A stretch of DNA of 32,000 nucleotides from Candidatus Lokiarchaeum ossiferum. Its GTDB lineage: Archaea > Asgardarchaeota > Lokiarchaeia > Sigyniarchaeales > Promethearchaeaceae. The notes beneath the pieces were generated by a model, which searched no databases, was not told the origin of the DNA, and saw only the letters and a list, made by a program, of their open reading frames with translations. The stretch lies in the NCBI GenBank assembly GCA_025839675.1, contig CP104013.1, positions 2,220,001-2,252,000 on the forward strand, read 5' to 3'. This document shows positions 9,212 to 29,781 of the stretch, piece by piece. Position 1 is the first letter of the stretch; each line of letters opens with the position of its first letter. The translations under genes were made by a program, and so were the position numbers.

Positions 9212-9597
9212 TTATTTCATAAGAAGGGCAGGAGTAATATCTTGCAAACTTCGTACCCCTGTCATCAACATTGCTTTTGCAAGATCCTTCTGGAGATATT
9301 CCATTTGTAATTGAACCCCTCTTGATCCACCTCCAATCGCAGCACGAACAACATCCCTTCCAATTAGCACGGCTTCCGCCCCTAAGGCGAGCATTTTCAA
9401 TACATCAAAACCTGTCCGGACGCCTCCATCCACCAAAATTTTGATTTTTCCATCAACGGCTTTAACAATTTCAGCTAAAACGGAGGCAGTACCAGGAGTG
9501 CAATCTAGTACTCTCCCTCCATGATTGGACACCATAATGGCCGAAGCTCCTGTCTTCACAGCCATTAAAGCATCTTCCACGGTCATAATCCCCTTGA
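9212..9597 (-). pseudogene. FMN-dependent alpha-hydroxy-acid dehydrogenase/oxidase (LldD/LOX family), C-terminal third only (fragment 1)
   Basis: The ORF 9212..9586 product VSNHGGRVLDCTPGTASVLAEIV...ILVDGGVRTGFDVLKMLALGAEAVLIGRDVV...GVQLQMEYLQKDL covers only the last ~125 residues of a ~350-aa TIM-barrel enzyme. Homology stops at ~9597, where the 27-bp module begins. Confidence 0.8.
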
Positions 9598-9963: not shown

Positions 9964-11799
9964 ATGATTAAGATAAAAAGATCAAAAAAATATAACTCAT
10001 TTATTTTTCAATTTTCTCTTTTATCGATTATCTTTCTTTTTCTATTGCTTCATTTTAGGACCGAAATGGTAAATAACGCAGAAAATCCGCCGAAAAATCA
10101 CAATTCAGAAGATTTCCCCGCTCCTTCCAGTGATGATTCAACAGCGTTTCTCTCAGTGTGGAATTCTCAGAAATCAAGTTATGGATCAAGTGCTCAAAAT
10201 CAAATTCATCTCCCCTTAATCTCAAATGGTAACTATAATTTCTTAGTACAGTGGGGAGATGGGAAAAAGGATAACATTACATCCTATTCGGATAGCAATA
10301 TTACCCATACATATTCAAAACCAGGGATTTATAATGTGATTATCACTGGAAAATTGGTGGGATGGAGCTTCAATTTTACGGGTGATAAAGATAAGATAGT
10401 AGAAATATCACAATGGGGGACGTTGAATTTAGGAAATGAAGGAAGTAATTTCGCGGGTTGTACAAACTTAAATCTCACTGCTACCGATGCATTAAACTTA
10501 ACGGAGACAACAACATTATATCGTGCTTTTTATGGGTGCGATAATTTAGGTAATATGGGAAATATGAGCAAGTGGGATGTTTCGAGAGTATTAAACATGG
10601 GCTCTATGTTCCTCGGCGCAGATAGCTTCAATCAAGACATTTGCAATTGGAATGTCTCAAGTGTTCTAAATATGAATAGAATGTTTTGTTATTCATCTAT
10701 GTTCAATCAAGATATCGGAAATTGGAATGTCTCGAAAGTTACGGATATGAGAGATATGTTCTATAGGACGCTTGCCTTCAATCAAAATATTGGTATTTGG
10801 AATGTCTCGAAAGTTTTGAAAATGGATTTTATGTTTTGCGGCGTAGATACATTCAACCAAGACATCGGAAATTGGGATGTATCTAATGTTATTAATATGA
10901 AATATATGTTTAATGGCGCATCTCTCTTCAATCAAGACATTGGAAGATGGAATGTTTCCAATGTTGTCAATATGGAGCACATGTTTAGTGATACATCAGC
11001 CTTCAATCAAGATATTGGAAGATGGAATGTATCCAATGTTGTCAATATGGAGCATATGTTTAGTGATACATCAGCCTTCAATCAAGATATCGGAGGTTGG
11101 GATGTTTCGAGTACCGAAAATATGAATGGATTGTTTTATTATGCATCTGTTTTTAATCAAGATATCGGAGGTTGGGATGTTTCGAGTGCAACATCTATGG
11201 CATCAGTTTTCAAAGGATCATCTGTTTTCAACCAAAATATTGGAGAATGGAATGTCTCAAATGTCAAAGAAATGGGACATATGTTTAATGGCGCATCTGC
11301 TTTCAATCAAGACCTCGGAAATTGGGATACTTCGAGTGTCTTGAATATGGATTCGATTTTTTGTTATGCATCTGCCTTCAATCAAGATATCGGAAGATGG
11401 AATGTTTCAAGAGTTACAGATATGAGGTCAATGTTCTACCGAGCAACATCTTTCAACCAAGATATCGGAAGCTGGGATATCTCAAGAGTCACAAATATGG
11501 AAGATATGTTCTTTGGGATTAAATTATCTACAGAAAATTACGACTCCTTGTTAACTAGTTGGGCACAACTTTCATTACAACATGGAGTGAAATTTAATGC
11601 AGGAAACTCTCAATACAGCTCAGGAGAAGCGGCAATAAAACGAGATTATATTATAAATACTTTTGGATGGGAAATAATTGATAATGGAGAAATTGAGAAC
11701 AATCGCCATATTTTTGGTTTTTCTTTAGAAATTTTAATTGGTTGCATTGGGATCACATCCTTAGGGTTATTCAAAAAAAAAGATCGATTTAGATTCTAA
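9964..11799 (+). CDS. BspA-like / DUF285-type repeat surface protein (26-residue-repeat family)
   Basis: 611 aa. N-terminal signal/anchor (FIFQFSLLSIIFLFLLL). Domain WGDGKKDNITSYSDSNITHTYSKPGIYNVIITG. Then 12-13 repeats of ~25 aa with FNQDIGxWNVSxVxxMxxMF. C-terminal hydrophobic helix plus KKKDRFRF. Confidence 0.85.
   Translation: MIKIKRSKKYNSFIFQFSLLSIIFLFLLLHFRTEMVNNAENPPKNHNSEDFPAPSSDDSTAFLSVWNSQKSSYGSSAQNQIHLPLISNGNYNFLVQWGDGKKDNITSYSDSNITHTYSKPGIYNVIITGKLVGWSFNFTGDKDKIVEISQWGTLNLGNEGSNFAGCTNLNLTATDALNLTETTTLYRAFYGCDNLGNMGNMSKWDVSRVLNMGSMFLGADSFNQDICNWNVSSVLNMNRMFCYSSMFNQDIGNWNVSKVTDMRDMFYRTLAFNQNIGIWNVSKVLKMDFMFCGVDTFNQDIGNWDVSNVINMKYMFNGASLFNQDIGRWNVSNVVNMEHMFSDTSAFNQDIGRWNVSNVVNMEHMFSDTSAFNQDIGGWDVSSTENMNGLFYYASVFNQDIGGWDVSSATSMASVFKGSSVFNQNIGEWNVSNVKEMGHMFNGASAFNQDLGNWDTSSVLNMDSIFCYASAFNQDIGRWNVSRVTDMRSMFYRATSFNQDIGSWDISRVTNMEDMFFGIKLSTENYDSLLTSWAQLSLQHGVKFNAGNSQYSSGEAAIKRDYIINTFGWEIIDNGEIENNRHIFGFSLEILIGCIGITSLGLFKKKDRFRF
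10516..11520 (+). repeat. Coding tandem repeats, ~75-bp period, 12-13 units
   Basis: The FNQ(D/N)IG motif recurs every 24-25 codons. Units 10927..11001 and 11002..11076 differ at only 3 of 75 nt, and all three differences are synonymous. Confidence 0.9.
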
Positions 11800-16405: not shown

Positions 16406-16625
16406 AATACAAATAGTTGATCATTGCTAAAAAATATTTAGAAATTACATATTTGGAAATACATTCGTATTCGATGATATATTTCAAATATTTATGAACC
16501 AAAAATGCTCATTTCTGACAAAGATTTTATGCTATAGCTGGGTTAAAAGAAAAAATATTTATGAGCAAAAACCAAATATAAAAGTAGTTATAAAAAAAAG
16601 AAATTCTCATGTAGAATGCTTTGGA

Positions 16626-17246
16626 ATGGGAAAAATCATGTCAGAAATGCTAACTGACCTCTTACAGAACATATATTCACGTATCGCCACATTGGGTAAA
16701 TCAATCCAAACCCTTCAAGGAAGTGTTGAGTCCCTAAATACGAATTTAGGAGAGAAGGTTCAATCGTTGGTAGATTCAATCAAATCAATGACGGAATCAG
16801 TTGAAAAAGAAGGAGAAACCCAGAATCTGGTGTTTAAACAAATTGGTGAAGAAGCAGTTCAAGAAATCCAACTTTTGCAAGAACGAGTTGGCCTTAAAGA
16901 TCTTGATGAATTAACTGGCAGGCTTAACCAATTTGTGGATCTCTCACAAGAGGCACTAAAACCAGAAACGGTGGATATTTTACTCCGCGAAGTGCTTGAC
17001 TCTATCCGAGAAGTAAAGGAAGGGCCAAGTAGTAAAGAAACAACAGGGTCCAGCGAAGATCTTTTACAACGAGTGGATGATTCTTTATCAGGAAAATCAA
17101 ATCCTTCCCCTCAACCGACTCCTTCGGCATCAGTACCTCCACCAACAAGCCCTTCACCTCCAACCCCTCCACCTGCTGCACCAGATAAGAAAAAAAACTT
17201 AAAGGATTTAGGTCCTCCACCCGGGACAATCCCCCCCCCAAACTAA
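16626..17246 (+). CDS. Hypothetical acidic coiled-coil protein with C-terminal proline-rich tail
   Basis: The ORF is listed from 16494, but A/T-rich TATA-like boxes at ~16573-16600 favour ATG 16626 or 16638. The helical N-terminal ~150 aa show an 11-residue periodicity (LQGSVESLNTN/LGEKVQSLVDS/IKSMTESVEKE). The tail is NPSPQPTPSASVPPPTSPSPPTPPPAAPDKKKNLKDLGPPPGTIPPPN. Confidence 0.6.
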   Translation: MGKIMSEMLTDLLQNIYSRIATLGKSIQTLQGSVESLNTNLGEKVQSLVDSIKSMTESVEKEGETQNLVFKQIGEEAVQEIQLLQERVGLKDLDELTGRLNQFVDLSQEALKPETVDILLREVLDSIREVKEGPSSKETTGSSEDLLQRVDDSLSGKSNPSPQPTPSASVPPPTSPSPPTPPPAAPDKKKNLKDLGPPPGTIPPPN

Positions 17247-17269
17247 ATACATTAAAAGGAGAATAAAAA

Positions 17270-17722
17270 ATGTCACAAAATTACTTGCAGGATATTGCCA
17301 CATCGATTAACAGCATAACCCAATCTTTAGATGGAACAATTGCTCAAATTGAAAATTTGAATCGAGCTCTTGAAGATAATTCCAAGAATTTAATGGAATC
17401 ACTGACTGCAGTCAATGAAAATATGCGGTTAATTATTGAGGTTATTAAAAAAGGGCGCTCGAATACTAAAGAATCATTGGATGAAATTAAAAAACATATC
17501 GACGATGAGATCCAATCCCTCTGGAATGAAAAATCCCTCGAAAATATTGGAAAGGATCAAATCGAAGCGGTGAAAAAACTCAAAAATATTAATTATGCCA
17601 TTGGTGAAAATTTGTATATGACTCAAATGCTCTCTATCATTACGTCACTCCGTCAAATTTTGGGCCAAGCCAAAGCAATCAAGTTAACCAAACAAACAAC
17701 TGCAGCTTCCGCCCAAAAATAA
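17270..17722 (+). CDS. Hypothetical coiled-coil protein, paralog of the N-terminal part of 16626..17246
   Basis: 150 aa. YLQDIATSINSITQSLDGTIAQIENLNRALEDNSKNLMESLTAVNENM aligns with LLQNIYSRIATLGKSIQTLQGSVESLNTNLGEKVQSLVDSIKSMTESV. GGAG lies 12 nt upstream of the ATG. The gap to the upstream gene is 23 bp. Confidence 0.6.
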   Translation: MSQNYLQDIATSINSITQSLDGTIAQIENLNRALEDNSKNLMESLTAVNENMRLIIEVIKKGRSNTKESLDEIKKHIDDEIQSLWNEKSLENIGKDQIEAVKKLKNINYAIGENLYMTQMLSIITSLRQILGQAKAIKLTKQTTAASAQK

Positions 17723-17726
17723 TATC

Positions 17727-17735
17727 TTTTTTTTT
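17727..17735 (+). terminator. Oligo-T tract (T9) after 17270..17722
   Basis: Nine T residues begin 5 nt after the stop codon. Confidence 0.4.
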
Positions 17736-17818
17736 ACATTCTTCAATTACACCAATAAAAAAGGTGGATTCTTTATAGGAGAAAAATCTTTAAGATCGAG
17801 GATCATTATCTATGATGA

Positions 17819-18697
17819 GTGAAAAAAATGGCCCTTGGTAGCTTCTTCTTCGTAGTTGATGATGCAAAAATTGCACGTAAAGCAGTGTATTTATCCCCAG
17901 AATCACCCCAAATTGAAATTGGTGACAATGAATTTTTACGGATTCGAACAGGACATTCAGATAAATCGTATGTTCTCACCTTACTCGCCGATGCCCAACT
18001 TTTTACATATAAAAAGGAATTAGATGTCAAAAGAAAAATCGTGGAATTAATTGGAGGAGTCATTTTAGAACGTGATATAAACACAGAAATTCATAAAGAT
18101 GCATTAAAAATGTTTGTGGAAAAAATGGCCGAATTTAAAGATAAGCCCAATGGGGATTTAATTATCCTAATTGAGCAACGCCATGCCCAACATTTTGACA
18201 AACCTCAATTTATTTTGGATCAAAAAGAAATTGAAAAGCGGTTAACTGACAAGGTCAAATCCTTAAATAAGCGTGGAAAGTTTGATGAAGCCAATATTCT
18301 ATTAGATAAAATTAAAAAAATCCCAAAAAAACTTTATGCAGCCCATAATACCGCCGAGAAAGCATATAAGAACCGAGACTTTGATAAAGCGGAGCGTGAA
18401 TATGCAACTGCAAAGAAACATGCTGAAAATTTAGGGGAAAAAGATTTAGTTTCCATGTATAAATCCAAAATTAACTTAGCTCGGAAAACACCATCCTTAT
18501 TGAAAAAACGGGATGATTTTGTAGATAAAGCCCTTAGTAGTTTAAAAGCTGGCGATTTCACTAAAGCCCAACGTTTTTTCAAGAAAGCATCTGAAGCATC
18601 AGAGGACCTGATGGATTCAACCCGTTCTGAAGAATATGCACTAAAAGCGAAAGCACTCGCAGAATATGTCAGGGTTGATAAAAAATTCAATAGATAA
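17819..18697 (+). CDS. Hypothetical protein: unknown N-terminal domain plus C-terminal TPR/MIT-like helical repeats
   Basis: 292 aa. GTG 17819 or ATG 17828. The C-terminal half contains three repeats of the type (K/R)xG(K/D)F(D/T)(E/K)A...: KRGKFDEANILLDKIKK, KNRDFDKAEREYATAKKHAENL, KAGDFTKAQRFFKKASEASEDL...EEYALKAKALAEYVRV. Confidence 0.55.
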   Translation: MKKMALGSFFFVVDDAKIARKAVYLSPESPQIEIGDNEFLRIRTGHSDKSYVLTLLADAQLFTYKKELDVKRKIVELIGGVILERDINTEIHKDALKMFVEKMAEFKDKPNGDLIILIEQRHAQHFDKPQFILDQKEIEKRLTDKVKSLNKRGKFDEANILLDKIKKIPKKLYAAHNTAEKAYKNRDFDKAEREYATAKKHAENLGEKDLVSMYKSKINLARKTPSLLKKRDDFVDKALSSLKAGDFTKAQRFFKKASEASEDLMDSTRSEEYALKAKALAEYVRVDKKFNR

Positions 18698-18703
18698 GAA
18701 GTA

Positions 18704-18712
18704 TTTTTTTTT
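18704..18712 (+). terminator. Oligo-T tract (T9) after 17819..18697
   Basis: Nine T residues begin 7 nt after the stop codon. Confidence 0.4.
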
Positions 18713-18750
18713 ACTACATTTCATTTAATGAACAATTTAAGGTAATCAAC

Positions 18751-19773
18751 ATGACCATAATTGGTATACTTACAGATTTTGGAATGCGTGGCCAACATTA
18801 TGTCGCAGAAATGAAGGGAGTCGCATTAAAAATTAATCAAAATGTACGTTTTATTGATGTCTCCCACACAATAACTCCTTTTTCAATAATGGAAGCGGCT
18901 TACACATTGTATACCGTCTACGATACATTTCCAGCAGAATCTATCTTTGTATGCGTGATAGATCCAGGAGTCGGCTCGGATCGCGATATTGTAGCCATCC
19001 AAACCATAGATAATTATATATTAATAGGTCCAGATAATGGAATATTTTCCTATTTTGCCCAGAAAAACTTGATTAGCATGATAATAAAGATTACTGAACC
19101 TGATTTCTATAATCCGAGGTACGCTGAAGCATTAAAAATCGTTGAAAAACGTCAAGAATTTCAAAAGGATGTCTACACGCAAGATCAAGGGATCAATCCT
19201 TTAGAAAATTCAAACCGATTGAAGATTGATTCGGATGAAATCCCAAGATCGATTCCAGATACCACTTCAATTGCCCCTACTCAATTGACCCCAATTACAA
19301 GCACCTTTCATGGAAGGGATATAATGATGCCTGTTGGAGCTCATTTATCAAATGGTCTTGATTTGTTTAGCATAGGGGAACCAAAGGATGAATTGGATGT
19401 TATATTGAATATTGAACCCGAAATATCAGAGGATAAGCAATTTATTACAGCTAAAATTCAATATATTGATGATTTTGGGAATATAATAACAACAATTCCA
19501 ATCGTAGAATTCCAGATGTTTACTTTTAACAAAAAATGTTCCTATCATTTGCATCATAGGGAAAAAAATCACCCTATAATTGCCACCCCTACCTTTGCAG
19601 GGCATGATTCAGATCAATTATTGCTGATTGAAGGATCCAGCGGATTTTTGGAGATTTGTTGCAATAAGGCTCGAGCTGATGAGGTAATTGATGCAGCCTT
19701 GGAAGATTCATTCAAGTTAGAAATAATGGGGGCATTATTTAGCGAATTTACAGAATTCCCCTTTAGCCAATAA
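18751..19773 (+). CDS. SAM hydroxide adenosyltransferase / SAM hydrolase (DUF62, fluorinase-chlorinase family)
   Basis: 340 aa. IGILTDFGMRGQHYVAEMKGV, FIDVSHTITPFSI, VCVIDPGVGSDRDIV, GPDNGIFS and STFHGRDIMMPVGAHLSNG are the hallmark motifs. A linker of about 58 aa is inserted before STFHGRD. Confidence 0.85.
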   Translation: MTIIGILTDFGMRGQHYVAEMKGVALKINQNVRFIDVSHTITPFSIMEAAYTLYTVYDTFPAESIFVCVIDPGVGSDRDIVAIQTIDNYILIGPDNGIFSYFAQKNLISMIIKITEPDFYNPRYAEALKIVEKRQEFQKDVYTQDQGINPLENSNRLKIDSDEIPRSIPDTTSIAPTQLTPITSTFHGRDIMMPVGAHLSNGLDLFSIGEPKDELDVILNIEPEISEDKQFITAKIQYIDDFGNIITTIPIVEFQMFTFNKKCSYHLHHREKNHPIIATPTFAGHDSDQLLLIEGSSGFLEICCNKARADEVIDAALEDSFKLEIMGALFSEFTEFPFSQ

Positions 19774-19814
19774 AACCTTTTTTTTCCTAAAAATACAAGA
19801 ATGAGGGATAATTT

Positions 19815-20969
19815 ATGAAGGTATCATCTAAAACCGAGATTGTTGCATGTTTTCATGAGACAGACTTACCCAAATTTCATACGGGCAAGTTATCCTCAAT
19901 AGTTTATCCAGCAACACGGGAAGAAAAAAACCAGAAAAATCTTTCATTCATCATCTGCAGAGTATATGCTTTTACGCTTGATGGAAAATATCTTGTTCAA
20001 AGGCGTTCAGTGACTCGAAAAGTTTTACCATTAAAATATTGCGATTCCGCTTCAGGACATGTCCAATTTCATGAAAATTTCTCTTTTGAACACATTCAAA
20101 CAGAAGCATGGCGAGAATTGACTGAAGAAATGGGTGCAAAAGTAATCTATGGTCGATTTTTGGATATGAAAATAGAACATAATCGGGAAAAAGCATGTGA
20201 ATTGGCCTATAATTTTATTGCTCTTATTGAGGATGCCATCCACATTGATTTAAAAGAAGTAGCACCTGAATCGGGGTTTTACACTCAGGAAGAAATGACC
20301 ATCCTGCTAAATCAAGAAAACTTTGTTCACATAACTCACGAATATTGGAAAAGAATTATTACCCAAAATCTCCAATCAATATTAATTACTGAATATGAAG
20401 AGAACCAAAAGTCAAAACAATCTTTAACCCCCATTTCTGCCACCAATCAAGACGATGCGAACCGATTTTCAGTAGGAGCGATAGTAGGGCGATTCCAACC
20501 TTTTCATAATGGACATCTTCAATTAATTCTTGAAATCTTCCAAGAGGTAAAATTTATAAAAATTGGTATAGGCTCCTCGCAATATTCTCACACAGCAGAT
20601 AATCCATTTTCTTTTGACGAACGAAGAAAGATGATAGAGGCCGCTTTAAAAGAACAAGATATTGCAGCAAGTTATTTTCAAATTTATCCTATTCCTGATT
20701 TACATAATATCTCTAAATGGACCACAACAATGCTAGAGATTTTGGGGAATTTTGAGATTTTTTATTCAAATAGCGAATGGATCCGTCAATATTTATCAAA
20801 TCATGGCAAAAAAATTGGCGCTTTAAAAAAAATTAATTTTCAACGATTCAATGGAACATTTATCCGTTCCGAAATCATGGCAGATCGAGAAACTGCCGGA
20901 CTGATACCTTTAGCAGTTATCAATGTTCTGAAAGAAATTAAAGGATTTGAGCGAATAAAATCTCTTTAA
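19815..20969 (+). CDS. nadM: Nudix hydrolase domain fused to archaeal-type nicotinamide-nucleotide adenylyltransferase
   Basis: 384 aa. The N-terminal half has a Nudix box variant E-HIQTEAW-RELTEEMGA. The C-terminal half, VGRFQPFHNGHLQLI...IGIGSSQYSHTADNPFSFDERRKMI...NGTFIRSEI...VLKEIKGFERI, matches archaeal NMNAT with the (H/T)xGH motif. Confidence 0.85.
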   Translation: MKVSSKTEIVACFHETDLPKFHTGKLSSIVYPATREEKNQKNLSFIICRVYAFTLDGKYLVQRRSVTRKVLPLKYCDSASGHVQFHENFSFEHIQTEAWRELTEEMGAKVIYGRFLDMKIEHNREKACELAYNFIALIEDAIHIDLKEVAPESGFYTQEEMTILLNQENFVHITHEYWKRIITQNLQSILITEYEENQKSKQSLTPISATNQDDANRFSVGAIVGRFQPFHNGHLQLILEIFQEVKFIKIGIGSSQYSHTADNPFSFDERRKMIEAALKEQDIAASYFQIYPIPDLHNISKWTTTMLEILGNFEIFYSNSEWIRQYLSNHGKKIGALKKINFQRFNGTFIRSEIMADRETAGLIPLAVINVLKEIKGFERIKSL

Positions 20970-20988
20970 TTTTCACTTTATTTTATAA

Positions 20989-21534
20989 TTGCTCGAAAAA
21001 ACTGTTTTAATTATGAATGTCTTTTTTGATACTATGGCTGACTATGATGCCGATGCAGAGTTGATGGACTTAGCTAATCAATTGTTAGCTCAACTCAAAA
21101 TGAAAAATCTTACTTTGGCGACAGCCGAAAGTGCCACAGGAGGGTTTATCAGCCACCTACTCACCAATATTGATGGTAGCTCTAAAGCCTTTATAGGAGG
21201 TGTTATTGCTTATTCAGCACATCTCAAAAATTTTACACTAAAAGTCGATTATGACCTCATTAATGATTATGGGACCATTTCTCCAGAAGTAACTGAGGCG
21301 CTATTAGATGGCTTAAAACAAATAATGCTGTCGGACATAGGAATCGCAATCACGGGAGTAGCAGGATCCTATATTTTGGAGGGCAAACCACGCGGATTAA
21401 TGTATATTGGAATTGGCACACACGCTTGTAATAAAGTAAAAGAATTTCGATTTCATGGCACAAGAATGGAAATCAAACGCCAATGCGCAAAAGCCACTTT
21501 TGAATTCTTACTCGCAGAATTAGAAAATATGTAA
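20989..21534 (+). CDS. pncC: CinA C-terminal domain protein / NMN amidohydrolase (PncC-like)
   Basis: 181 aa. LTLATAESATGGFISHLLTNIDGSSKAFIGGVIAYS...GIAITGVAG is the CinA/PncC signature. TTG 20989; ATG 21013 or 21034 are alternative starts. Confidence 0.8.
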   Translation: MLEKTVLIMNVFFDTMADYDADAELMDLANQLLAQLKMKNLTLATAESATGGFISHLLTNIDGSSKAFIGGVIAYSAHLKNFTLKVDYDLINDYGTISPEVTEALLDGLKQIMLSDIGIAITGVAGSYILEGKPRGLMYIGIGTHACNKVKEFRFHGTRMEIKRQCAKATFEFLLAELENM

Positions 21535-21586
21535 GAACCGTTTTTATTTTCTGTCCAAATTCTTTAAAGGTTTTTTTGCTTATCAC

Positions 21587-22663
21587 TTGTTATCAATGGA
21601 ACCAATCGTCATCGATGGATCATTTGGAGAGGGAGGGGGTTCGATTCTCCGCATTTCAGCAGGATTGGCTTGCGTTATAAATAAACCGATTCGAATAATT
21701 AATATTCGCAAAAATCGCACCAAACCGGGATTAAGATTACAACATTTAGTTGGATTACAAGCCCTTGCATCGTTAACAGGAGGAAAAACCAGCACCATCG
21801 AAGTTGGGTCCACAGAAATCGAATTATTTCCTGGAGAGAAGTGGAGTAATAAGATAGATGTTTCAATAGCGACTGCAGGAAATATTGGATTACTAACACA
21901 GACCTTACAAAATGCTTTGTTTCTGGCACCACCACCAAATTGCGAATATAAGATCAATGTACAAGGAGGAGGAACATACGGAAAATATGCTCCCGGCCCA
22001 GATTATTTGAATAATGTTACGTATACACTTTTCAAACAAATGGGATATAATGTCAACATTGAAGTTATACAACATGGGTTTTTCCCAAAGGGTGGTGGAG
22101 AAGCTTGTATTACAATCCAGCCTAAGACAACTCTAGCAGAATATCAACCAATTTGGTTTGAGGAACGAGGAGAATTGCTCGGAATAAAGGGAGTTATCCA
22201 TGTAGAAGAACGATTATGGAAGCCAAAAGTTGCCGAAAGGATACTTGCCAGTATCAAACAGCACCTCTCTGCTCCTTTTGCTAAGAGTATTGAAGTAGAA
22301 ATCACCCCTCAATATCATAAATCGCTTTCTACAGGGGTAGGGGTTGATGTATGGAGTGAATTTTCTAACGGAGAAGTATTGGGAGCAGGTACAATTTTAG
22401 GAGAACGAGGAGTCTCGTCAGAAAAAGTCGGAAAGAAAGTTGCAGTAGAATTAAACAAAATTTTGAATGGAACAGCAACTGTTGATGAATTTGCTTCCGA
22501 TCAAATTCTACCCTTATTGTGTCTAATCGAACAACCTTCAAAATTCAGACTGGCCTCAATTTCTTCCCATTTTAAGACTAATTTGGATCTTTTAGAATTT
22601 TTCTTCCATCGAAAATGGGAACTAACCAAAACTACGGGCGGATTTTTCGTGGAATATCAATAA
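21587..22663 (+). CDS. rtcA: RNA 3'-terminal phosphate cyclase
   Basis: 358 aa. IDGSFGEGGGSILRIS, RTKPGLRLQHL, and the C-terminal SSHFKTNLDLLEFF containing the candidate nucleophile His. TTG 21587 or, more likely, ATG 21596. Confidence 0.88.
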   Translation: MLSMEPIVIDGSFGEGGGSILRISAGLACVINKPIRIINIRKNRTKPGLRLQHLVGLQALASLTGGKTSTIEVGSTEIELFPGEKWSNKIDVSIATAGNIGLLTQTLQNALFLAPPPNCEYKINVQGGGTYGKYAPGPDYLNNVTYTLFKQMGYNVNIEVIQHGFFPKGGGEACITIQPKTTLAEYQPIWFEERGELLGIKGVIHVEERLWKPKVAERILASIKQHLSAPFAKSIEVEITPQYHKSLSTGVGVDVWSEFSNGEVLGAGTILGERGVSSEKVGKKVAVELNKILNGTATVDEFASDQILPLLCLIEQPSKFRLASISSHFKTNLDLLEFFFHRKWELTKTTGGFFVEYQ

Positions 22664-22871: not shown

Positions 22872-23921
22872 ATGGCAAGATGTCCAAGCTGTGGTCATGA
22901 ATCTGACCTTGATACCTATATCTGTGATAACTGCGAATATAAACTCAAAGAAGAACGCATTGAGGCAATTCCGATTTTTACTCGACCAAATATCAGATTA
23001 TATAAGCCCGATAACAGATTTAAGCGCATTTATAAAGTAATCAATCCAATAAAAACCCCCATTGCTTTCCGTGACATTAATAAAAAGAAAGATGGAGGAG
23101 GACCTCGATTTATTACGTGGTTCAATGGTTTTCTCATTGGATTATGTGCGCTTGCAGTAAGTTGGCACTTAGATATTCAACTTTATCAAGGTGTAGAATT
23201 AACTCCGATGTCCATCTCATTCAGCCCATTTGCAATCACATGGGGGTATAAATGGGTTGCATTCTTAAATAGTTTTATTATCTTCCTATGTTTCTTCATT
23301 TTCGGAATTATTTATTATGTCATTATTTTCAAACTGTATAATTTTGCCTTTGGACTGGCAGCCAATTTTTCAGTCCAGCTGGATGGGTTACTGGCCATTC
23401 GGTATAACGTCAAATTGAAAAAGAGCAAACTTAATGACATGATCTCAGGAAAGAGCCGTTTGGAGAAAAAATCAGGAATCGAGGGCGAAACATCCTTCCA
23501 AACATCTCAGAAGAAAGATTTTATGACAAAACTATCCCAAACAGGCAAAAATAAAATTATGACTTACGCCTACGCCCCATTAATAATAATTAACTTCATA
23601 TCATTTTTACTAATTGCAATCGCGCTCCCTACCACAACTCTCGCAAACACGAGTGGAGTTACCTTCTCGAGTATTAGTAATACGATGAGTGATATCTGGT
23701 CATCTAAACTCTGGATGGTCTTAGATGGACTGCAATTATTAGGAATCATCTGGGTTGCGTGTACGATGAGTGTTGCACAACGAGAAATTGGCAATACCAG
23801 CACCACCCGTCTCTTAATAGGAAATATGATTATGGCGCTTATAATCGGATTTACCACAATCATGCTACGTCCTACTTTCGGGGCCAATAATTGGAATATT
23901 ATTGAATCTTTTACTAGTTGA
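22872..23921 (+). CDS. Zinc-ribbon N-terminus plus polytopic membrane protein (possibly Yip1-like)
   Basis: 349 aa. CPSCGHESDLDTYICDNCEY (CxxC-x12-CxxC) is followed by about 6 hydrophobic helices and a charged loop (KLKKSKLNDMISGKSRLEKKSG...). The Yip1 idea rests only on the overall layout and the NPIKTPIAF segment. Confidence 0.5.
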   Translation: MARCPSCGHESDLDTYICDNCEYKLKEERIEAIPIFTRPNIRLYKPDNRFKRIYKVINPIKTPIAFRDINKKKDGGGPRFITWFNGFLIGLCALAVSWHLDIQLYQGVELTPMSISFSPFAITWGYKWVAFLNSFIIFLCFFIFGIIYYVIIFKLYNFAFGLAANFSVQLDGLLAIRYNVKLKKSKLNDMISGKSRLEKKSGIEGETSFQTSQKKDFMTKLSQTGKNKIMTYAYAPLIIINFISFLLIAIALPTTTLANTSGVTFSSISNTMSDIWSSKLWMVLDGLQLLGIIWVACTMSVAQREIGNTSTTRLLIGNMIMALIIGFTTIMLRPTFGANNWNIIESFTS

Positions 23922-23976
23922 TCACATATCATCCACATAATATCCCTTTTTTTCTTCTTTTCACCCTTTATTCTTA

Positions 23977-24657
23977 TTGGTTCCTATGAATTTTTCGCCT
24001 GAATCTCCTCAACCCAAATCAATTATTACATCTCCTCAAAAGAGAACCGTAGTGGATATTAAGGCGGATTTATATTCCATTTTTCAAACAGCTGCTTTTC
24101 TAAAAGATCGTTTTGAATCGGGAATGGTGGATGCTCTATTTTATTATCGTCGTTTGAAACACTCCCATTCTGAATTAGTAGGACTTCAAAATGAACTCTC
24201 TCTCTGGAACCGTTCTTTATTGGAGATCATTGATGATTTCAAAATTGATCAAAATTTCACTTCCATTCTTTCAGTAATATCTTCGATTCAAGATTTTAAA
24301 TTCAATGAAATTGCTCAAACATGGCAACTTGATCCTTATTTATTGGCTTCAGTGGCAACGGAATGTACATCCAATTTCATTACTATTATTGATTATTTGC
24401 ATTTAATTGAAGCCTTTGAGGAAGAATTTTTCCAGCAATTGATGGGGGATCTCGAAAAAAGCTTAAGTCAAATTAATACTTTTCAGCCCTTTTTAATCCA
24501 AATTGCCCAATTAAATCAAAATCTCCCACTTTATCTCCAACAATCAGGACTTTACCAAGCTACAGACCCAACCCACATTAAAGCAATTCTCCAAAAAATC
24601 GAACAAAGTATCTATACTCTCTTTCAAGAATTTAAACAATATTTGCACATTCAATGA
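23977..24657 (+). CDS. Vps28-like protein (ESCRT-I subunit homolog)
   Basis: 226 aa, about the length of eukaryotic Vps28. The N-terminal part ADLYSIFQTAAFLKDRFESGMVDALFYYRRL aligns with human [31 protein letters not shown]. The C-terminal part SNFITIIDYLHLIEAFEEEFFQQLMGDLEKSL...THIKAILQKIEQSIYTLFQEFKQYL aligns with SLFITVMDKLRLEIRAMDEIQPDLRELMETM...SQVRQMLFDLESAYNAFNRFL. TTG 23977 or ATG 23986. Confidence 0.65.
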   Translation: MVPMNFSPESPQPKSIITSPQKRTVVDIKADLYSIFQTAAFLKDRFESGMVDALFYYRRLKHSHSELVGLQNELSLWNRSLLEIIDDFKIDQNFTSILSVISSIQDFKFNEIAQTWQLDPYLLASVATECTSNFITIIDYLHLIEAFEEEFFQQLMGDLEKSLSQINTFQPFLIQIAQLNQNLPLYLQQSGLYQATDPTHIKAILQKIEQSIYTLFQEFKQYLHIQ

Positions 24658-24853: not shown

Positions 24854-25126
24854 ATGCGAGGAAATCGAAGATCCCATGCTATGCGACGCTTGATGCGACG
24901 CTTGCCAGGTAATACTACCACCACCCATTTTGTACGAAGAAGACCAAAATACGCTCACTGTCCAATAACGGGTCAAGTACTCCACGGAGTTCCCCGATTA
25001 CGACCTGCTCAAGTTCGAAAATTAACCAAAACCGAACGAAGACCAAGTCGGCCATATGGTGGAAAAATCTCCCACACTGCTTTAGCAAATGCAATTCGGG
25101 CTAAAGTTTTAGAAGATCGCAATTAA
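24854..25126 (+). CDS. rpl34e: 50S ribosomal protein eL34
   Basis: 90 aa, very basic. HCPITGQVLHGVPRLRP...RPSRPYGG matches the eL34 pattern. Confidence 0.9.
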   Translation: MRGNRRSHAMRRLMRRLPGNTTTTHFVRRRPKYAHCPITGQVLHGVPRLRPAQVRKLTKTERRPSRPYGGKISHTALANAIRAKVLEDRN

Positions 25127-25177: not shown

Positions 25178-25789
25178 CTACGAAAAATTTTGCTTTAGAA
25201 AATCAGCAAGGTTTTGAAAATCTTTAAACAAATGAGATTTTAAACCTATTCGACTGGCGGCCGCACTATGAGTGTGAGAATCATCTATATACACAGCTTC
25301 TGAGGGTTTTATACCCAATGTTTTCAAGGCAAAGTGAAAAATTCCAGGATTAGGTTTTATCAAACCAATGCTGGATGAATTGATAATATAATCAAAAGTA
25401 TTAGAAATCGAGAGAGTCGAAAGATCTTCAGTTAGTTTATTGGTTGCATTGGTTAATAATGCCAAAGTTGCACCTTTATTACGGTATGAAGTATACAAAT
25501 CCAATATTTCATAATTAATTATACCTGGAAATGAAGACCAATCCCTTATTAATTTCATACTATCTTGGGCAGGTAAAAATTCCTGAATCCGAGAGGTAAT
25601 ATTTCTTCTCCACTCACTATCTGAGATTTCTCCCACCATCGCTTGATTCAAATCAGGATACCCAAAGGTAGTGTGCAAAAGAGTTCCTTGGGGAAGACCA
25701 TAACGCGTTTCAAACCCGGAATTCCTCTGGGCAGGAAAAAATCTAAGCACCCCATCTAAATCGGTAATAATTGCCTTCATGAAGATCAA
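25178..25789 (-). CDS. HAD superfamily hydrolase (subfamily IA-like)
   Basis: 203 aa. Motif I IITDLDGVL, motif II LLTNATN, motif III KPNPGIF, motif IV VYIDDS. Alternative start ATG 25780. Confidence 0.85.
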   Translation of the reverse strand: MIFMKAIITDLDGVLRFFPAQRNSGFETRYGLPQGTLLHTTFGYPDLNQAMVGEISDSEWRRNITSRIQEFLPAQDSMKLIRDWSSFPGIINYEILDLYTSYRNKGATLALLTNATNKLTEDLSTLSISNTFDYIINSSSIGLIKPNPGIFHFALKTLGIKPSEAVYIDDSHTHSAAASRIGLKSHLFKDFQNLADFLKQNFS

Positions 25790-25831: not shown

Positions 25832-26383
25832 ATGAATTTTTCCTTTGCGGGATTACATGGAACCGGAAAAAGCACAATTGCGAAAAAAGTTGCGGACCAT
25901 CTAAACTATACTTTTTATTCCACCGGCATGGCTTTTCGAGAGTTAGCCAAAGAAAAAAACATGTCTTTAGAAGATTTCTCTCTATACGCTGAAGATCATT
26001 TTGAAATTGATAAAGAATTAGATGGAAAAATCCTAAAATTAGCCCAAACGGGTGAAAATTATGTATTTGAAGGACAACTTCCAACATATATGTTAGGAGA
26101 ACTCAAAGATTTTGCGATCTTATTAGTATGTGATGAAAAAGTACGTATTGAACGGATGATGGACCGTGATGTCCGTACTTTTGAAGCTCAACGGCACGAG
26201 ACACTAGTACGGGAAGAAAGTGAACGCCAACGGTTCATTGACATTTACCAAATCGATGTTTTAGATCCTGCCACCATGCACAACACTTTCGATTTAATCA
26301 TTAATACGACACATTTGGGGATAAATGCAATCTTCAACATCTGTATTACAGCGCTCACGGAATTTATTCATGGTCAGCGTTAA
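25832..26383 (+). CDS. cmk: Cytidylate kinase, archaeal type
   Basis: 183 aa. P-loop GLHGTGKST, FRELAKEKNMSLEDFS, EIDKELD. It occupies the conserved archaeal position between the eL34 and eL14 genes. Confidence 0.85.
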   Translation: MNFSFAGLHGTGKSTIAKKVADHLNYTFYSTGMAFRELAKEKNMSLEDFSLYAEDHFEIDKELDGKILKLAQTGENYVFEGQLPTYMLGELKDFAILLVCDEKVRIERMMDRDVRTFEAQRHETLVREESERQRFIDIYQIDVLDPATMHNTFDLIINTTHLGINAIFNICITALTEFIHGQR

Positions 26384-26563
26384 GAAAAAAAACGAAAAAT
26401 CAAAAATTTTTTAATTTTTGCTGTATTGATCAAAATATTCTCAGCGGTTTTGTTTTTACAAAATGCTTAGAAACATTAAGATATCACCTTGGTTGAAATC
26501 TGAACTGCGGTGAGATCTTGTGTAAACTCCGTTTATGGTGACATAAATGAGGTGTTTCATACC

Positions 26564-26833
26564 ATGCCAGTATTCGAAGTAGGTCGTGTTGCATATAAAA
26601 CTCTCGGAAGAGAGGCAGGTCTTGCCTGCGTAATTGTAGAAGTAATCGACAAATCATATGTGTTAGTCGATGGAATCAAAGTTCGACGACGACGTGCCAA
26701 TGTTCGTCATCTTGCTCCAACCCCTGAAAAAATTGACATCAAAAAAGGTGCAAAAACCGCCGCTGTCAAAAAAGCAGTAATTGCTGCTAAAATGGAAGAG
26801 AAATTTTCCAATCGAATGAAATTAGATTTGTAA
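26564..26833 (+). CDS. rpl14e: 50S ribosomal protein eL14
   Basis: The ORF is listed from GTG 26510, but homology starts at MPVFEVGRVAYKTLGREAGLACVIVEVIDKSYVLVDG...RRRRANVRHLAPT (ATG 26564). SD-like GAGGTG sits at 26547-26552. Confidence 0.88.
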   Translation: MPVFEVGRVAYKTLGREAGLACVIVEVIDKSYVLVDGIKVRRRRANVRHLAPTPEKIDIKKGAKTAAVKKAVIAAKMEEKFSNRMKLDL

Positions 26834-26956: not shown

Positions 26957-27093
26957 CCTGCATTCTAAATGCGATTTGAAATTAATTTTTAATCAAATCA
27001 ATTATGACTCTTTTGATTACATGATTATATCTTACAAATGTTATGATTTTCAATCCAAGATTAATTTCAGGCATTTTAAAAGAATAAAAAAAA

Positions 27094-27876
27094 TTATAAT
27101 GAAATCCAGGTACTTGCATCTTTAATTATGTTTGGATTTTGGTCTGAATCTGTTTGGAAAATCTCAATTGAAGTGAATATTCCGTTCTTATCAGAACTAA
27201 ATTCAATCTTAGCAACATTCTCATCAATGAAGTAGACCATATTTTCAAGAAGAAGATCATCAATTGTTAAGTTTGCAGAATTATTAAAGTATCCAACAAA
27301 AAAACCATGGACTATTTCGTTTGTTTGATTGATAGGAATAGTATAATTTGGATTACTTGAAGCAAAATCAGTATGCCATATGGAAGGAAACAATGAAATG
27401 TCGACGATTCCATCCTTAATATGAATATAATTGTCGGAAAAGTTATAATTACGAGTAGTAGTTCCTGAACTAACTCCACCGGATTGCATTGAACTCATTA
27501 AAGAGCAAGTATATATAATAGAATCATTTGAAAGTACAATTTTTCTGTAAAATAATTTTGCTATAGTATTGAATTGATTACTATAATTTCTAGTATTTTG
27601 ATTATATCTATGGGAAAAAGTAAGATCTTGTTCAGAAGAATTCCAATAAATTTCACTTGATGTATTAAAAAAAAACATCTCCCCAGGAGATTGTATTTCA
27701 TCTTCAGAATTAATATCATCCTTAATATGAAGATTATTTCCAAAATAAATTATAGAAAATGTGCTTAAATTAGTAATGATTAACATAAGACCAATGCATA
27801 AAATTGATTTCCTGGTAGTTAAGAAATACCACTCAAATTTATTGTTTTTTTGAACCATAATAAAGATTAGATTCAC
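27094..27876 (-). CDS. Hypothetical membrane-anchored, Asn-rich extracellular protein
   Basis: 260 aa. N-terminal TM (ILCIGLMLIITNLSTFSIIYF). Many N-x-S/T sequons (NTS, NSS, NYS, NDS, NFS, NQT, NNS, NLT). I recognise no family. The start may be ATG 27858 (MVQKNN). Confidence 0.55.
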   Translation of the reverse strand: MNLIFIMVQKNNKFEWYFLTTRKSILCIGLMLIITNLSTFSIIYFGNNLHIKDDINSEDEIQSPGEMFFFNTSSEIYWNSSEQDLTFSHRYNQNTRNYSNQFNTIAKLFYRKIVLSNDSIIYTCSLMSSMQSGGVSSGTTTRNYNFSDNYIHIKDGIVDISLFPSIWHTDFASSNPNYTIPINQTNEIVHGFFVGYFNNSANLTIDDLLLENMVYFIDENVAKIEFSSDKNGIFTSIEIFQTDSDQNPNIIKDASTWISL

Positions 27877-28025
27877 TTTTTATTTAAGTTCAATTGTCAA
27901 TTAACTTCAAAATAACCAAGTGATCTTTAGAATTTTGTATGCACTTGTTTAACTCGTTTTTGAACTTCCTATATAAGGAGTGCATGAATCCTAGAGAGTG
28001 CACATACGTAAGAATCGACTACACT

Positions 28026-28047
28026 CCATCGAGTGCGCCATCATTTT
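28026..28047 (+). repeat. 22-bp direct repeat, copy 2 (orphan tRNA-Ser 3' end; att-like)
   Basis: Exact 22/22 match to 26935..26956. There is no intact tRNA body in front of it. Confidence 0.85.
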
Positions 28048-28270
28048 TCTACCCACATTACTCAATTTGAGAATATTTTATATCCAAAACAAGAGTTTAT
28101 CACCATTATATGTTATTATCTGGTGAAAACGTTATCTTAGTCGAACAACGATCTATTTTAGGTGCTTTAATGAGTGAGAAATAAGTAACTAATCGGAATT
28201 TGATGCAAAGACCTTATATGCATTTTTAAATTTTATATAGATATAATTATTCTTATTAGAGGCAGAATAG

Positions 28271-28802
28271 TTGGAGAAAAAAAAATATGGATTCTTTGTA
28301 CTATTTGGGTTGATTATAGGTGCCACTCTTTCTGGTTTTATTATCAATGAAAAAATCAAAAGTAAATTAGCTAAAGATCAAAACAAAATTTTTTTTCAAA
28401 GTTTACCGGAAAATTTTTTTGTACATTAATTTGAAAGTACTTTGAAATATGATTACGGTCGATTCAATTTTGATGTTCTAAGAATAATCGGAAATAATAC
28501 TCAAAGTAGTATAACGATTGGCAATGAAGATAAAAATTTAAATCTGTCTTGTGATATCAATAGTAATTATTTAGATCTTCGAAATTGAAATCAAATTAGA
28601 GCCTAAAACTAAAACAATTGATGAAAATCAAATATTCAATATACCAGGATATATTTCTGGATATGTTCCTCTCTCTCTAATCATTGGGATTCTTATTGTC
28701 TATTTTGCTAATCTTCAGAAGAAAAAAATTCAAAAATTGACCTGTAATCTCATAAGTTCCCCTTTTCTTCAAATTAGTTTTTTTCATGAACTTCAAAAGT
28801 AA
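28271..28802 (+). pseudogene. Possible disrupted small surface-protein gene (in-frame TAA plus frameshift)
   Basis: TTG 28271 opens MEKKKYGFFVLFGLIIGATLSGFII...FFVH, followed by TAA at 28427. The same frame continues FESTLKYDYGRFNFDVLRIIGNNTQSSITIGNEDKNLNLSCDINSNYLDLRN to TGA at 28586. The +1 frame then reads ...IDENQIFNIPGYISGYVPLSLIIGILIVYFANLQKKKIQK. No ORF of 60 aa or more is listed in this ~900-bp stretch. Confidence 0.3.
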
Positions 28803-28827
28803 TCTAAGTTTTTTTTATTCTCTTAAA

Positions 28828-29781
28828 TTACCCCGTTTCATTGTTGTTTCCAATTGAAATAATAATATTTCCTTTTTTATGGCCAATTTCAACATATTTA
28901 TGGGCTTCAGCAATTTTTTCTAAAGGATAACTTTTATCTACAACAGATTTTAGTTTTCCTAAATGCATAAGATCTGCTAGGAAGAGTAAATCCTCATTAC
29001 TTTTTTTCATTACTCCTTGACTAACTGTCAGGAAACTGCCATTTGGATATAAAAGTTCTCGACATTTTGAAAAAGAAGTTTTTCCAACAGCATCAAAAAT
29101 ATAATCATAAAGAGTTCCACTTTTTGTATAATCATCCTTAGTGTAATCTATCACAACATCTGCGCCCAAATTTTTTACTAAAACTAAATTCGTAGTACTA
29201 CATACACCAGTAACTTCTGCCCCAAAGTATTTCGCAAGCTGAACCGCAAAAGTACCTACAGATCCTGAAGCACCATAGATTAGCATTTTTTGTCCTTTTT
29301 GGATGTTAACTTTTCTTAGATAAAATAATGCAGTCAACCCACCAATTGGAAGTGCGGCTGCTTCTTCATACGATAGATTATCGGGTTTGAGTACCATTAT
29401 ATTAGGCCCTAGAAGAAAATGGGAAGTTGGTTCTTCTGTTAAGCAGATATATTCACCATAGGCACCAAAACTAGGAGAGGCAATAACTTTATCGCCTATT
29501 TTGAATCTGGTAACATTTTTACCTATTGCCTCAATTTCCCCCGCCAACTCGCGCCCTTGAATAGTTTTCCTTGGCTTGCGGATACCAAATATTAATCGAG
29601 CGATGAATCGTACCATTGGGGGGAATTTCGACATTCCACTTCGAAGTACAACATCGGCTTGGGTGACTGTTGTAGCATGAATTCTAATCATGACTTCTTT
29701 GTTCTTTGGGAGTTGTTGCTTAACATCTTCTACCTTCAAAACTTCAGGATGACCATATTGTTTACAAACTGCTGCCTTCAT
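28828..29781 (-). CDS. NAD(P)H:quinone oxidoreductase-like MDR family dehydrogenase
   Basis: 317 aa. MKAAVCKQYGHPEVLKVEDV, GRELAGEIEAIGKNVTRFKIGDKV, LIYGASGSVGTFAVQLAKYFGAEVTGV (zeta-crystallin/QOR type, no structural-zinc Cys cluster). Confidence 0.85.
   Translation of the reverse strand: MKAAVCKQYGHPEVLKVEDVKQQLPKNKEVMIRIHATTVTQADVVLRSGMSKFPPMVRFIARLIFGIRKPRKTIQGRELAGEIEAIGKNVTRFKIGDKVIASPSFGAYGEYICLTEEPTSHFLLGPNIMVLKPDNLSYEEAAALPIGGLTALFYLRKVNIQKGQKMLIYGASGSVGTFAVQLAKYFGAEVTGVCSTTNLVLVKNLGADVVIDYTKDDYTKSGTLYDYIFDAVGKTSFSKCRELLYPNGSFLTVSQGVMKKSNEDLLFLADLMHLGKLKSVVDKSYPLEKIAEAHKYVEIGHKKGNIIISIGNNNETG

Follow-up and report, generated by a model that had tools for sequence, protein, structure and literature searches.

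The window analysed here, a 32,000-nucleotide (32 kb) stretch of the Candidatus Lokiarchaeum ossiferum genome (contig CP104013.1), carries two neighbouring genes that are read in the same direction. The first is predicted to specify an Asgard-specific membrane protein in which an N-terminal zinc ribbon is fused to a Yip1 domain (hereafter ZnR-Yip1), and the second specifies a putative Vps28, a subunit of ESCRT-I (one of the endosomal sorting complexes that are required for transport, ESCRT). An original prediction, made from the sequence alone, had placed the two open reading frames (ORFs) at 22872..23921 and 23977..24657, both on the plus strand, and the same positions and orientation were found. 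The features of the pair are as follows.

22872..23921, plus strand: ZnR-Yip1 (NEF87_001848; annotated as hypothetical / zinc ribbon), 349 aa, defined by the ORF and by family alignments A4 and A8
22872..22946, plus strand: predicted zinc ribbon C4-x2-C7-x10-C18-x2-C21 (aa 1-25), from Pfam ribbon matches and invariant columns
23040..23876, plus strand: predicted Yip1-type membrane domain (about aa 57-335), from Pfam PF04893 in relatives, hydropathy and AlphaFold2 (AF2) helices
23364..23555, plus strand: Lys/Arg-rich loop within the Yip1 domain (aa 165-228), from the AF2 predicted local distance difference test (pLDDT), the split profile and alignment A8
23922..23985, plus strand: ZnR-Yip1/Vps28 intergenic spacer, with a run of seven T (T7) at 23947-23953
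23977..24657, plus strand: putative Vps28 ortholog, of 226 aa if read from TTG 23977 or, more probably, of 223 aa from ATG 23986
24049..24324, plus strand: predicted Vps28 N-terminal core domain (hairpin of helices 25-47 and 53-75, and three short helices), the part that binds Vps23 in eukaryotes, from AF2, profile A5 and hhalign
24334..24642, plus strand: predicted Vps28 C-terminal four-helix bundle (helices 120-143, 149-163, 167-189 and 198-222), from AF2, Pfam and PDB matches

The gap between the two genes, expected to be 55-65 bp, is 55 bp long if Vps28 starts at the TTG and 64 bp if it starts at the ATG. The Vps28 product is 99% identical to an NCBI 'hypothetical protein' (P0001), and the 223 aa length of this homolog implies that translation starts at ATG 23986. 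The 349-aa membrane protein is 100% identical to NEF87_001848 (P0014), and both proteins have homologs at E<1e-100, far beyond chance.

Considered alone, the window Vps28 matches a single Pfam family, VPS28 (PF03997; 17.4 bits, E=0.004, aa 125-172). This single-sequence match is sub-threshold, and it is the evidence at family level that is decisive. The same Pfam family is matched by 9 of 13 close homologs, and when a Loki-only profile of these 13 sequences (A1) was compared with the PDB, the top four matches were Vps28 C-terminal domains (2j9w, 2j9u, 2j9v and 2g3k; E=0.014 for 2j9w). An exhaustive profile search of 1.84 billion representatives gave 67 relatives, of which the 53 near-full-length sequences formed a wider profile (A5). 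VPS28 is matched by 47 of these 53 (best E-value 5e-45), and the top nine PDB matches of A5 are all Vps28 and span both domains. They include 2j9w (2e-10) and the yeast protein (1.5e-7) for the C-terminal domain, and 2f6m_B (2.6e-4), human 6vme_E (2e-3), 2f66_B, 2p22_B and 2caz_B for the N-terminal domain, which was recovered by this wider profile and not by the Loki-only one. As a guard against circularity, an independent alignment (A6) was assembled from 27 distant Asgard Vps28, each matching VPS28 at E<=1e-3, and hhalign aligned A1 with A6 at 99.7% probability (E=2.4e-26) over 199 columns, corresponding to aa 21-226 of the window protein.

The AF2 model of the protein (pLDDT 78) consists of a helical hairpin (25-47/53-75) and short helices, followed by a four-helix bundle. 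Two motifs that had been paired by eye with eukaryotic Vps28, FITIIDYLHL (aa 134-143) and IKAILQKIEQSIYTLFQEF (aa 201-219), are aligned identically by HMMER, which sets them against VSLFITVMDKLRLEI and VRQMLFDLES-AYNAFNRF of Xenopus Vps28. In the columns of the family alignment, the TSNFIT..DYLHL helix of the C-terminal bundle is invariant. The proposed likeness to Vps28 over both domains is borne out by the full-length profile-profile match and by the nine Vps28 chains that head the A5 comparison, and the gene is, as judged from its sequence relatives, a genuine Vps28 homolog.

The N-terminal ribbon of the upstream protein has the form C4-x2-C7-x10-C18-x2-C21, so that its central spacer is x10 and not x12 as first described. 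Generic ribbon families (Pfam Zn_ribbon_3/DZR/Zn_Ribbon_1) are matched only weakly, yet by 15 of 17 family members, and the four ribbon cysteines, together with R3, G8, E28, E31 and R38, are invariant in all three clades of the family (A8). A family profile compared with the PDB found the closest solved relatives of the ribbon in the generic ribbons of bL32 and RpoP, and also in ArnA. A ribbon of NZF type was considered and rejected, as these three were the only relatives found by the PDB profile and zf-RanBP was matched by none of the members.

For the membrane-embedded part, Pfam Yip1 (PF04893) is matched by 9 of the 17 members (best 1.1e-7), and two of them, P0025 and P0026, exceed the cutoff of 28.6 bits (32.0 and 32.4 bits). 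In the homolog from locus L015, aa 57-305 span positions 2-171 of the 173 in the profile, while the homologs from L019 and L021 match its N-terminal half and other members its C-terminal half. These relatives support the earlier description of the protein as possibly Yip1-like, as an assignment at family level, since the window ZnR-Yip1 itself has no Pfam Yip1 match even at E<=1. Hydrophobic segments lie at aa 80-98, 125-164, 229-258, 279-302 and 312-334, the second of which may be a single long helix or a pair of spans; hydropathy and AF2 point to five, possibly six, membrane segments, where about six transmembrane helices had first been counted. The AF2 model has a pLDDT of 66, falling to 36-48 over aa 181-220 of the loop at aa 165-228, which varies in length in A8 and splits the Yip1 profile. 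The ribbon is predicted to be cytoplasmic, and by the positive-inside rule the basic loop would also be cytoplasmic. Foldseek found no match to the model in the PDB, no solved Yip1 structure was found by Foldseek or by the family profile against the PDB, and NCBIfam gave no informative match. The family was found only in Asgard-labelled metagenome-assembled genomes (MAGs) and sequences.

Both genes belong to a block of about 12 genes with the order three helical proteins, SAM_HAT, NMNAT-like, (CinA), RtcA, ZnR-Yip1, Vps28, eL34, Cmk and eL14. The rest of this block, and the one gene inserted in it, are located in the window as follows.

16494..22663, plus strand: upstream part of the block (three helical proteins, SAM_HAT, Nudix/NMNAT-like, CinA and RtcA), from Pfam and synteny
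16494..17246, 17270..17722 and 17819..18697, plus strand: the three unannotated helical proteins (250, 150 and 292 aa)
24854..25126, 25832..26383 and 26510..26833, plus strand: downstream part of the block (eL34, Cmk and eL14, respectively), from Pfam and synteny
25178..25789, minus strand: HAD hydrolase between eL34 and Cmk, from Pfam

Pfam agrees with the original prediction on the two flanking genes, RtcA (21587..22663, E=8.6e-57) and eL34 (24854..25126, E=2.6e-19). A Pfam scan of all substantial ORFs in the window detected no ESCRT-III, Vps4, ESCRT-II, UEV or other ESCRT or ubiquitin gene, and no small GTPase gene. The gene for Vps28 does stand apart from other ESCRT genes, as had been remarked, and its separation from the ESCRT cluster is already in print, Lokiarchaeal ESCRT genes having been described as 'not tightly clustered' (PMC9192718).

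The upstream order of the block is common to loci L001, L006, L021 and L103, where the three helical proteins precede SAM_HAT in members of both clades A and B (the clades are defined below). These helical proteins have only sub-threshold matches to Pfam families of coiled-coil type, with Sec8_C for the 150-aa protein, and COG4_N is matched by all three homologs of the 292-aa protein examined (E about 1e-3, below the cutoff). The position of the HAD hydrolase is without a gene in every other locus examined, and the gene seems to have entered the eL34-Cmk-eL14 array as an insertion specific to this lineage. In clade B (L017, L019, L021 and L103) a gene for EMC3/TMCO1 (DUF106) lies after eL14 on the opposite strand, and in L017, L019 and L021 it is followed by SecY, P1, uL10, uL1 and uL11; in this clade, ZnR-Yip1 and Vps28 therefore sit in a translation/membrane-insertion neighbourhood.

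A gene for ZnR-Yip1 was found upstream of Vps28, on the same strand, in each Vps28 locus with enough upstream sequence. The pair is seen in P. syntrophicum MK-D1 (L013), in Harpocratesius (L004 and L011) and in several MAGs, and it is also kept where the Vps28 relatives share no more than 20-30% identity (L015-L019 and L021). The ZnR-Yip1 proteins form three clades with a mutual identity of about 30%: clade A (L. ossiferum, MK-D1 and Harpocratesius), clade B (GC14_75-like) and clade C (L015 and L016). When metagenomes were scanned with a distant, clade-B ZnR-Yip1 as seed, 43 full-length loci were obtained, 36 of them with at least 500 bp of downstream sequence, and in 35 of these 36 Vps28 follows within 8-108 bp. 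Conservation of the pair in related genomes, which the original prediction had left to be examined, thus extends across three deep clades. The sole clade-B exception, L058 (32-1396), has ZnR-Yip1 followed by eL34 after a 226 bp gap, implying that Vps28 was lost or relocated in that lineage.

ZnR-Yip1 and Vps28 are directly adjacent except in L010 and L011. Only in L010 does a gene come between them, a 452-aa ORF on the same strand (L010:4493-5851) that resembles a DEAD-box helicase on motif inspection only. In L011, from Harpocratesius repetitus, the pair is separated by an insertion of about 557 bp (L011:5311-5891) that is bounded by imperfect inverted repeats of 34 nt and by a direct duplication of TCTGTTAATC. 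The L004 spacer, near-identical in other respects, has no such insertion, which looks like a miniature inverted-repeat transposable element (MITE). The junctions on either side of the pair are also interrupted by insertions in several loci (RtcA/ZnR-Yip1 and Vps28/eL34; L003, L012, L013, L015 and L019, and L009 and L013), and in these the spacing within the pair stays at 40-165 bp.

The labels attached to the clade-B sequences by their submitters (Thor, Heimdall, Hod, Promethearchaeota) are unreliable. Taken at face value they would have the pair span the Thor, Heimdall and Hod lineages, a reading that was rejected when proteins of 100% identity were found to carry different class labels, and the pair is not claimed here beyond Lokiarchaeia-like genomes. 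P0113 and P0114, for example, have 302 aa each, show 100% identity in the best BLASTP alignment between them, and are labelled Thorarchaeota and Heimdallarchaeota, respectively (ACFF-series tags), while a 59%-identical relative is labelled Hodarchaeota. On an Odinarchaeial contig, Vps28 is part of the classic ESCRT cluster, in the company of Vps22, Vps25, Vps4 and a pair of Snf7 genes; ZnR-Yip1 was not detectable in this 7.8 kb locus, where the contig stops 112 bp upstream of Vps28.

The Lokiarchaeal Vps28 for which protein interactions have been reported is Lokiarch_10170 of GC14_75, not the window protein. Its sequence is given by Hatano et al. 2022 (Supplementary Data 1; PMC9192718), who detected interactions with the UEV/Vps23-like protein, the steadiness-box protein and Vps22 by yeast two-hybrid assay. 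Lokiarch_10170 is 40-58% identical to clade-B Vps28s and 19% identical to the window Vps28. On the GC14_75 contig, the gene order is three unknown proteins, SAM_HAT, NMNAT-like, RtcA, a 311-aa ZnR-Yip1, Vps28, eL34 (uncalled, and found by tblastn), Cmk and eL14, with EMC3 on the opposite strand past eL14. Lokiarch_10170 occupies the slot of the window Vps28, and the gene upstream of it presumably bears the tag Lokiarch_10160. Since the block includes single-copy ribosomal protein genes, one such locus is expected per genome, and the window gene is by its position an ortholog of Lokiarch_10170, not a second paralog.

Although both bear the genus name Lokiarchaeum, GC14_75 stands no closer to L. 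ossiferum at this locus than other clade-B sequences do (eL34 36%, eL14 51%, RtcA 40% and Vps28 19% identity), and MK-D1 is much closer (eL34 65% and eL14 72%). Between the window and clade B as a whole, identity is 40-43% for RtcA, 29-31% for ZnR-Yip1, 36-40% for eL34, 41-48% for Cmk and 51-58% for eL14. Among the six block genes compared, Vps28 evolves fastest (mean p-distance 0.66) and ZnR-Yip1 is second (0.52), followed by RtcA (0.49), with eL14 at 0.36. The position of these two genes as the fastest-evolving of the block explains why the window Vps28 falls under the Pfam threshold and carries a 'hypothetical' label.

The T7 run in the window spacer has counterparts in all homologous spacers, which are 42-165 bp long, and may serve as an oligo-T terminator of archaeal type, belong to a promoter region, or both. 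Clade-A spacers (L003, L012, L013, L004, L006 and L018) share a motif like CATC(C/T)AGATA(A/T)CATAT ahead of the T-run, present as CATCCACATAATATCCCTTTTTTT in the window, and this could be a promoter for Vps28 (TFB recognition element (BRE) and TATA box) and/or a terminator of the upstream gene.

We consider it quite probable that the window gene is a Vps28 ortholog in its standard Lokiarchaeial slot, and that its adjacency to ZnR-Yip1 reflects a long-standing shared context. By homology, the N-terminal hairpin would assemble with the UEV/Vps23-like and steadiness-box proteins in the ESCRT-I headpiece, and the C-terminal four-helix bundle would contact ESCRT-II through Vps22. Vps28 would thereby hand ubiquitin-marked cargo to ESCRT-III and Vps4, from a chromosomal slot that would lie far from the ESCRT-II/III/Vps4 cluster, within the block of about 12 genes. 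The adjacency most likely represents shared chromosomal context of long standing, perhaps with co-regulation, in a housekeeping translation/secretion neighbourhood, and a direct physical partnership of Vps28 and ZnR-Yip1 is judged unlikely.

The strongest of the alternatives, which we would give about even chances, is that an early event brought both genes into a stable and highly expressed housekeeping array next to eL34-Cmk-eL14, and that they were inherited together with no shared function. Conservation of the whole block is about equal to that of the pair, and the unrelated RtcA, NMNAT-like, CinA and Cmk genes are kept in the array at equal frequency. The T-runs in every spacer suggest separate transcription units, and L010, L011 and L058 are exceptions to the pairing. 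Rate covariation, a crude measure, was examined across 33 non-redundant loci with Mantel tests on residual distances, the other block genes serving as controls; the residual correlation between ZnR-Yip1 and Vps28 was r=0.16, tenth of 15 gene pairs, with no specific signal. What an inheritance of this kind accounts for less readily is that the order is kept at about 30% protein identity, which is unusual for unrelated archaeal genes, and that both genes, unlike their neighbours, are Asgard-specific and related to membrane trafficking. A separate association of ESCRT-I and Yip1 has also been reported in Hodarchaeia (bioRxiv 10.1101/2023.07.25.550441).

Another alternative is a functional module, in which ZnR-Yip1 would serve Vps28 and ESCRT-I specifically as their partner in the membrane, whether as anchor, receptor or cargo adaptor, a proposal that we regard as doubtful. 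Here the cytoplasmic ribbon and its conserved IExIP..F.RP linker, or else the basic loop, would bind Vps28 and so bring ESCRT-I to the membrane, much as the NZF-N finger of yeast Vps36 binds the Vps28 C-terminal domain. Strand, order and adjacency are kept across three clades in which ZnR-Yip1 is about 30% and Vps28 about 19-30% identical, 35 of 36 clade-B loci keep the pair, and its members stay 40-165 bp apart where the flanking junctions are interrupted. The ribbon cysteines and the linker residues E28, E31 and R38 are invariant, and the Thorarchaeial Vps28, often fused to a BAR domain (PMC10307638), is an instance of an Asgard Vps28 coupled to a membrane binder. Against such a module stand the nearly equal conservation of the whole block, unrelated enzymes included, and the low rank of the pair in rate covariation. 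The pair is split by the helicase-like gene of L010 and the MITE-like element of L011, Vps28 is gone in L058, and an oligo-T run lies between the genes. In addition, the ribbon matches bL32 and RpoP and not NZF, and Vps28 of Odinarchaeia belongs to an ESCRT cluster with no ZnR-Yip1 seen before the contig ends.

If ZnR-Yip1 were the integral-membrane receptor of Lokiarchaeial ESCRT-I, with ribbon and linker binding Vps28, which we think rather improbable, it would provide a protein-based placement of ESCRT-I on membranes in archaea that lack ESCRT-0, Vps37 and a GLUE/NZF-bearing Vps36. The Yip1-ESCRT connection would then predate eukaryotes, and the placement beside eL34, Cmk and eL14, with SecY and EMC3 close by in clade B, would be a sign that the pair is constitutively co-expressed with the translation/membrane-insertion machinery.

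Several observations weigh against the identification of the window gene as a Vps28 ortholog. The protein scores under the VPS28 gathering cutoff (17.4 against 24.5 bits), phmmer found no match to it in the PDB when it was used alone, and a direct hhalign comparison with a single solved C-terminal domain sequence was weak (E=0.0016, 16% probability). Profile and structure searches had been proposed as a check, and while the profiles put Vps28 on top, Foldseek of the full-length AF2 model did not recover Vps28 and gave no match with an E-value under 0.4. With just 19% identity to Lokiarch_10170, orthology rests on synteny together with profile homology.

Low identity and the sub-threshold Pfam score would also suit a second Vps28 paralog, as the original prediction had suggested, with the canonical Vps28 elsewhere and this copy in a separate membrane-protein role. 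Many extra Vps28-C proteins are known in Lokiarchaeia (Makarova et al. 2024), and the pattern scan, in which the assemblies of MK-D1 and H. repetitus each yielded one Vps28 copy, would have missed a copy of the Lokiarch_10170 type. Nevertheless, this is a very unlikely reading: Lokiarch_10170 and all its 40-58%-identical relatives occupy the identical slot, in a block expected once per genome, and Vps28 divergence scales with that of the neighbouring genes. The idea was given up once Lokiarch_10170 had been placed between ZnR-Yip1 and eL34/Cmk/eL14. That the protein is no Vps28 at all, and instead a generic all-helical protein with a chance resemblance in its motifs, would fit the Foldseek result and the weak single-sequence matches, yet it is scarcely credible and effectively refuted by A5 and hhalign, which give an unbroken chain of significant, full-length homology to Pfam-verified Vps28 and top PDB matches that are all Vps28, with nothing else comparable.

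Elsewhere in the window, a 124-aa ORF at 9212..9586 (minus strand) matches only the C-terminal third of FMN-dependent dehydrogenase (profile positions 228-348 of 350, E=8e-44) and is probably a truncated gene or pseudogene. A 611-aa protein with five DUF285 repeats (E=7e-176) is encoded at 9964..11799 (plus strand). The region 27000..29000 has a GC content of 27%, compared with about 35% elsewhere, and may be recently acquired or fast-evolving; it includes a 260-aa ORF (27094..27876, minus strand) with no Pfam match and an apparent N-terminal hydrophobic segment.

Lokiarchaeal Vps28 and its location outside the ESCRT cluster are already known, and Vps28 and many Vps28-C proteins have been described in Asgards (Makarova et al. 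2024). The main texts of the principal papers make no mention of Yip1, L34 or a zinc-ribbon membrane protein beside Vps28, no mention of 'Lokiarch_10160' was found in the literature searched, and a 2025 ESCRT study of MK-D1 does not mention Vps28. What is new here is modest: the recognition of the divergent clade-A Vps28 in cultured strains, a syntenic landmark by which to find it, and the apparently undescribed ZnR-Yip1 neighbour. Asgard ESCRT-I is central to arguments on the origin of eukaryotic membrane trafficking, and cultures exist of two carriers of the clade-A Vps28 (L. ossiferum and P. syntrophicum MK-D1). With the landmark RtcA–ZnR-Yip1–Vps28–eL34, ESCRT-I becomes open to testing in organisms amenable to growth and imaging, and ZnR-Yip1 is a candidate, cheap to test, for how Asgard ESCRT-I reaches membranes. 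Should the link not be real, the result is an annotation correction and a caution that conserved adjacency in a housekeeping block is weak evidence of function.

Among known systems, the closest is Lokiarch_10170 itself (KKK45392.1), which shares with the window Vps28 its two-domain architecture, its length (218 and 223 aa) and its slot among RtcA, ZnR-Yip1, eL34, Cmk and eL14, both genes lying outside the ESCRT-II/III/Vps4 cluster. They differ in the helix motif, which is TSSFITLMDALKL in Lokiarch_10170 and TSNFITxxDYLHL in the faster-diverged clade of L. ossiferum, MK-D1 and Harpocratesius. Eukaryotic Vps28 (C-terminal domain structures 2J9W, 2J9U and 2G3K; N-terminal 2F6M, 2P22 and 6VME) has in common with the window protein the hairpin core and four-helix bundle, with the helix-1 motif FITVMDxLxL and the terminal helix co-linear. 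Identity over the C-terminal domain is 23%, and the window gene differs in its ribosomal-protein neighbourhood. Asgards are without Vps37 and full-length Vps36 (PMC9192718).

Eukaryotic Yip1/YIPF proteins (PF04893) resemble ZnR-Yip1 in combining a multi-span Yip1 domain with a cytoplasmic N-terminal extension, whereas in the window protein that extension is a zinc ribbon and a basic loop of about 60 aa interrupts the Yip1 domain. For the ribbon, a parallel is seen in the NZF-N finger of yeast Vps36 bound to the Vps28 C-terminal domain (2J9U), likewise a small four-cysteine zinc module near an ESCRT component. The NZF consensus spacing is CxxC-x10-CxxC, equal to that of the window ribbon. The two have no sequence similarity, however, as the ribbon has A2 and S11 where NZF has Trp and Asn, and NZF-N is carried by an ESCRT-II protein and the window ribbon by a membrane protein. 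A Hodarchaeial cluster of UEV-Vps23, ubiquitin, Yip1 and Rab-like genes (bioRxiv 10.1101/2023.07.25.550441) also associates Yip1 with an ESCRT-I subunit, which is Vps23 there and Vps28 here, in a block without a Rab-like GTPase. Finally, the Vps5-BAR/Vps28 fusions of Thorarchaeia (Eme et al. 2023, PMC10307638) tie Vps28 to a membrane-associating module, as here; lineage and mechanism differ, the Thorarchaeial protein being fused to a peripheral BAR domain and the window Vps28 encoded adjacent to an integral Yip1 protein.

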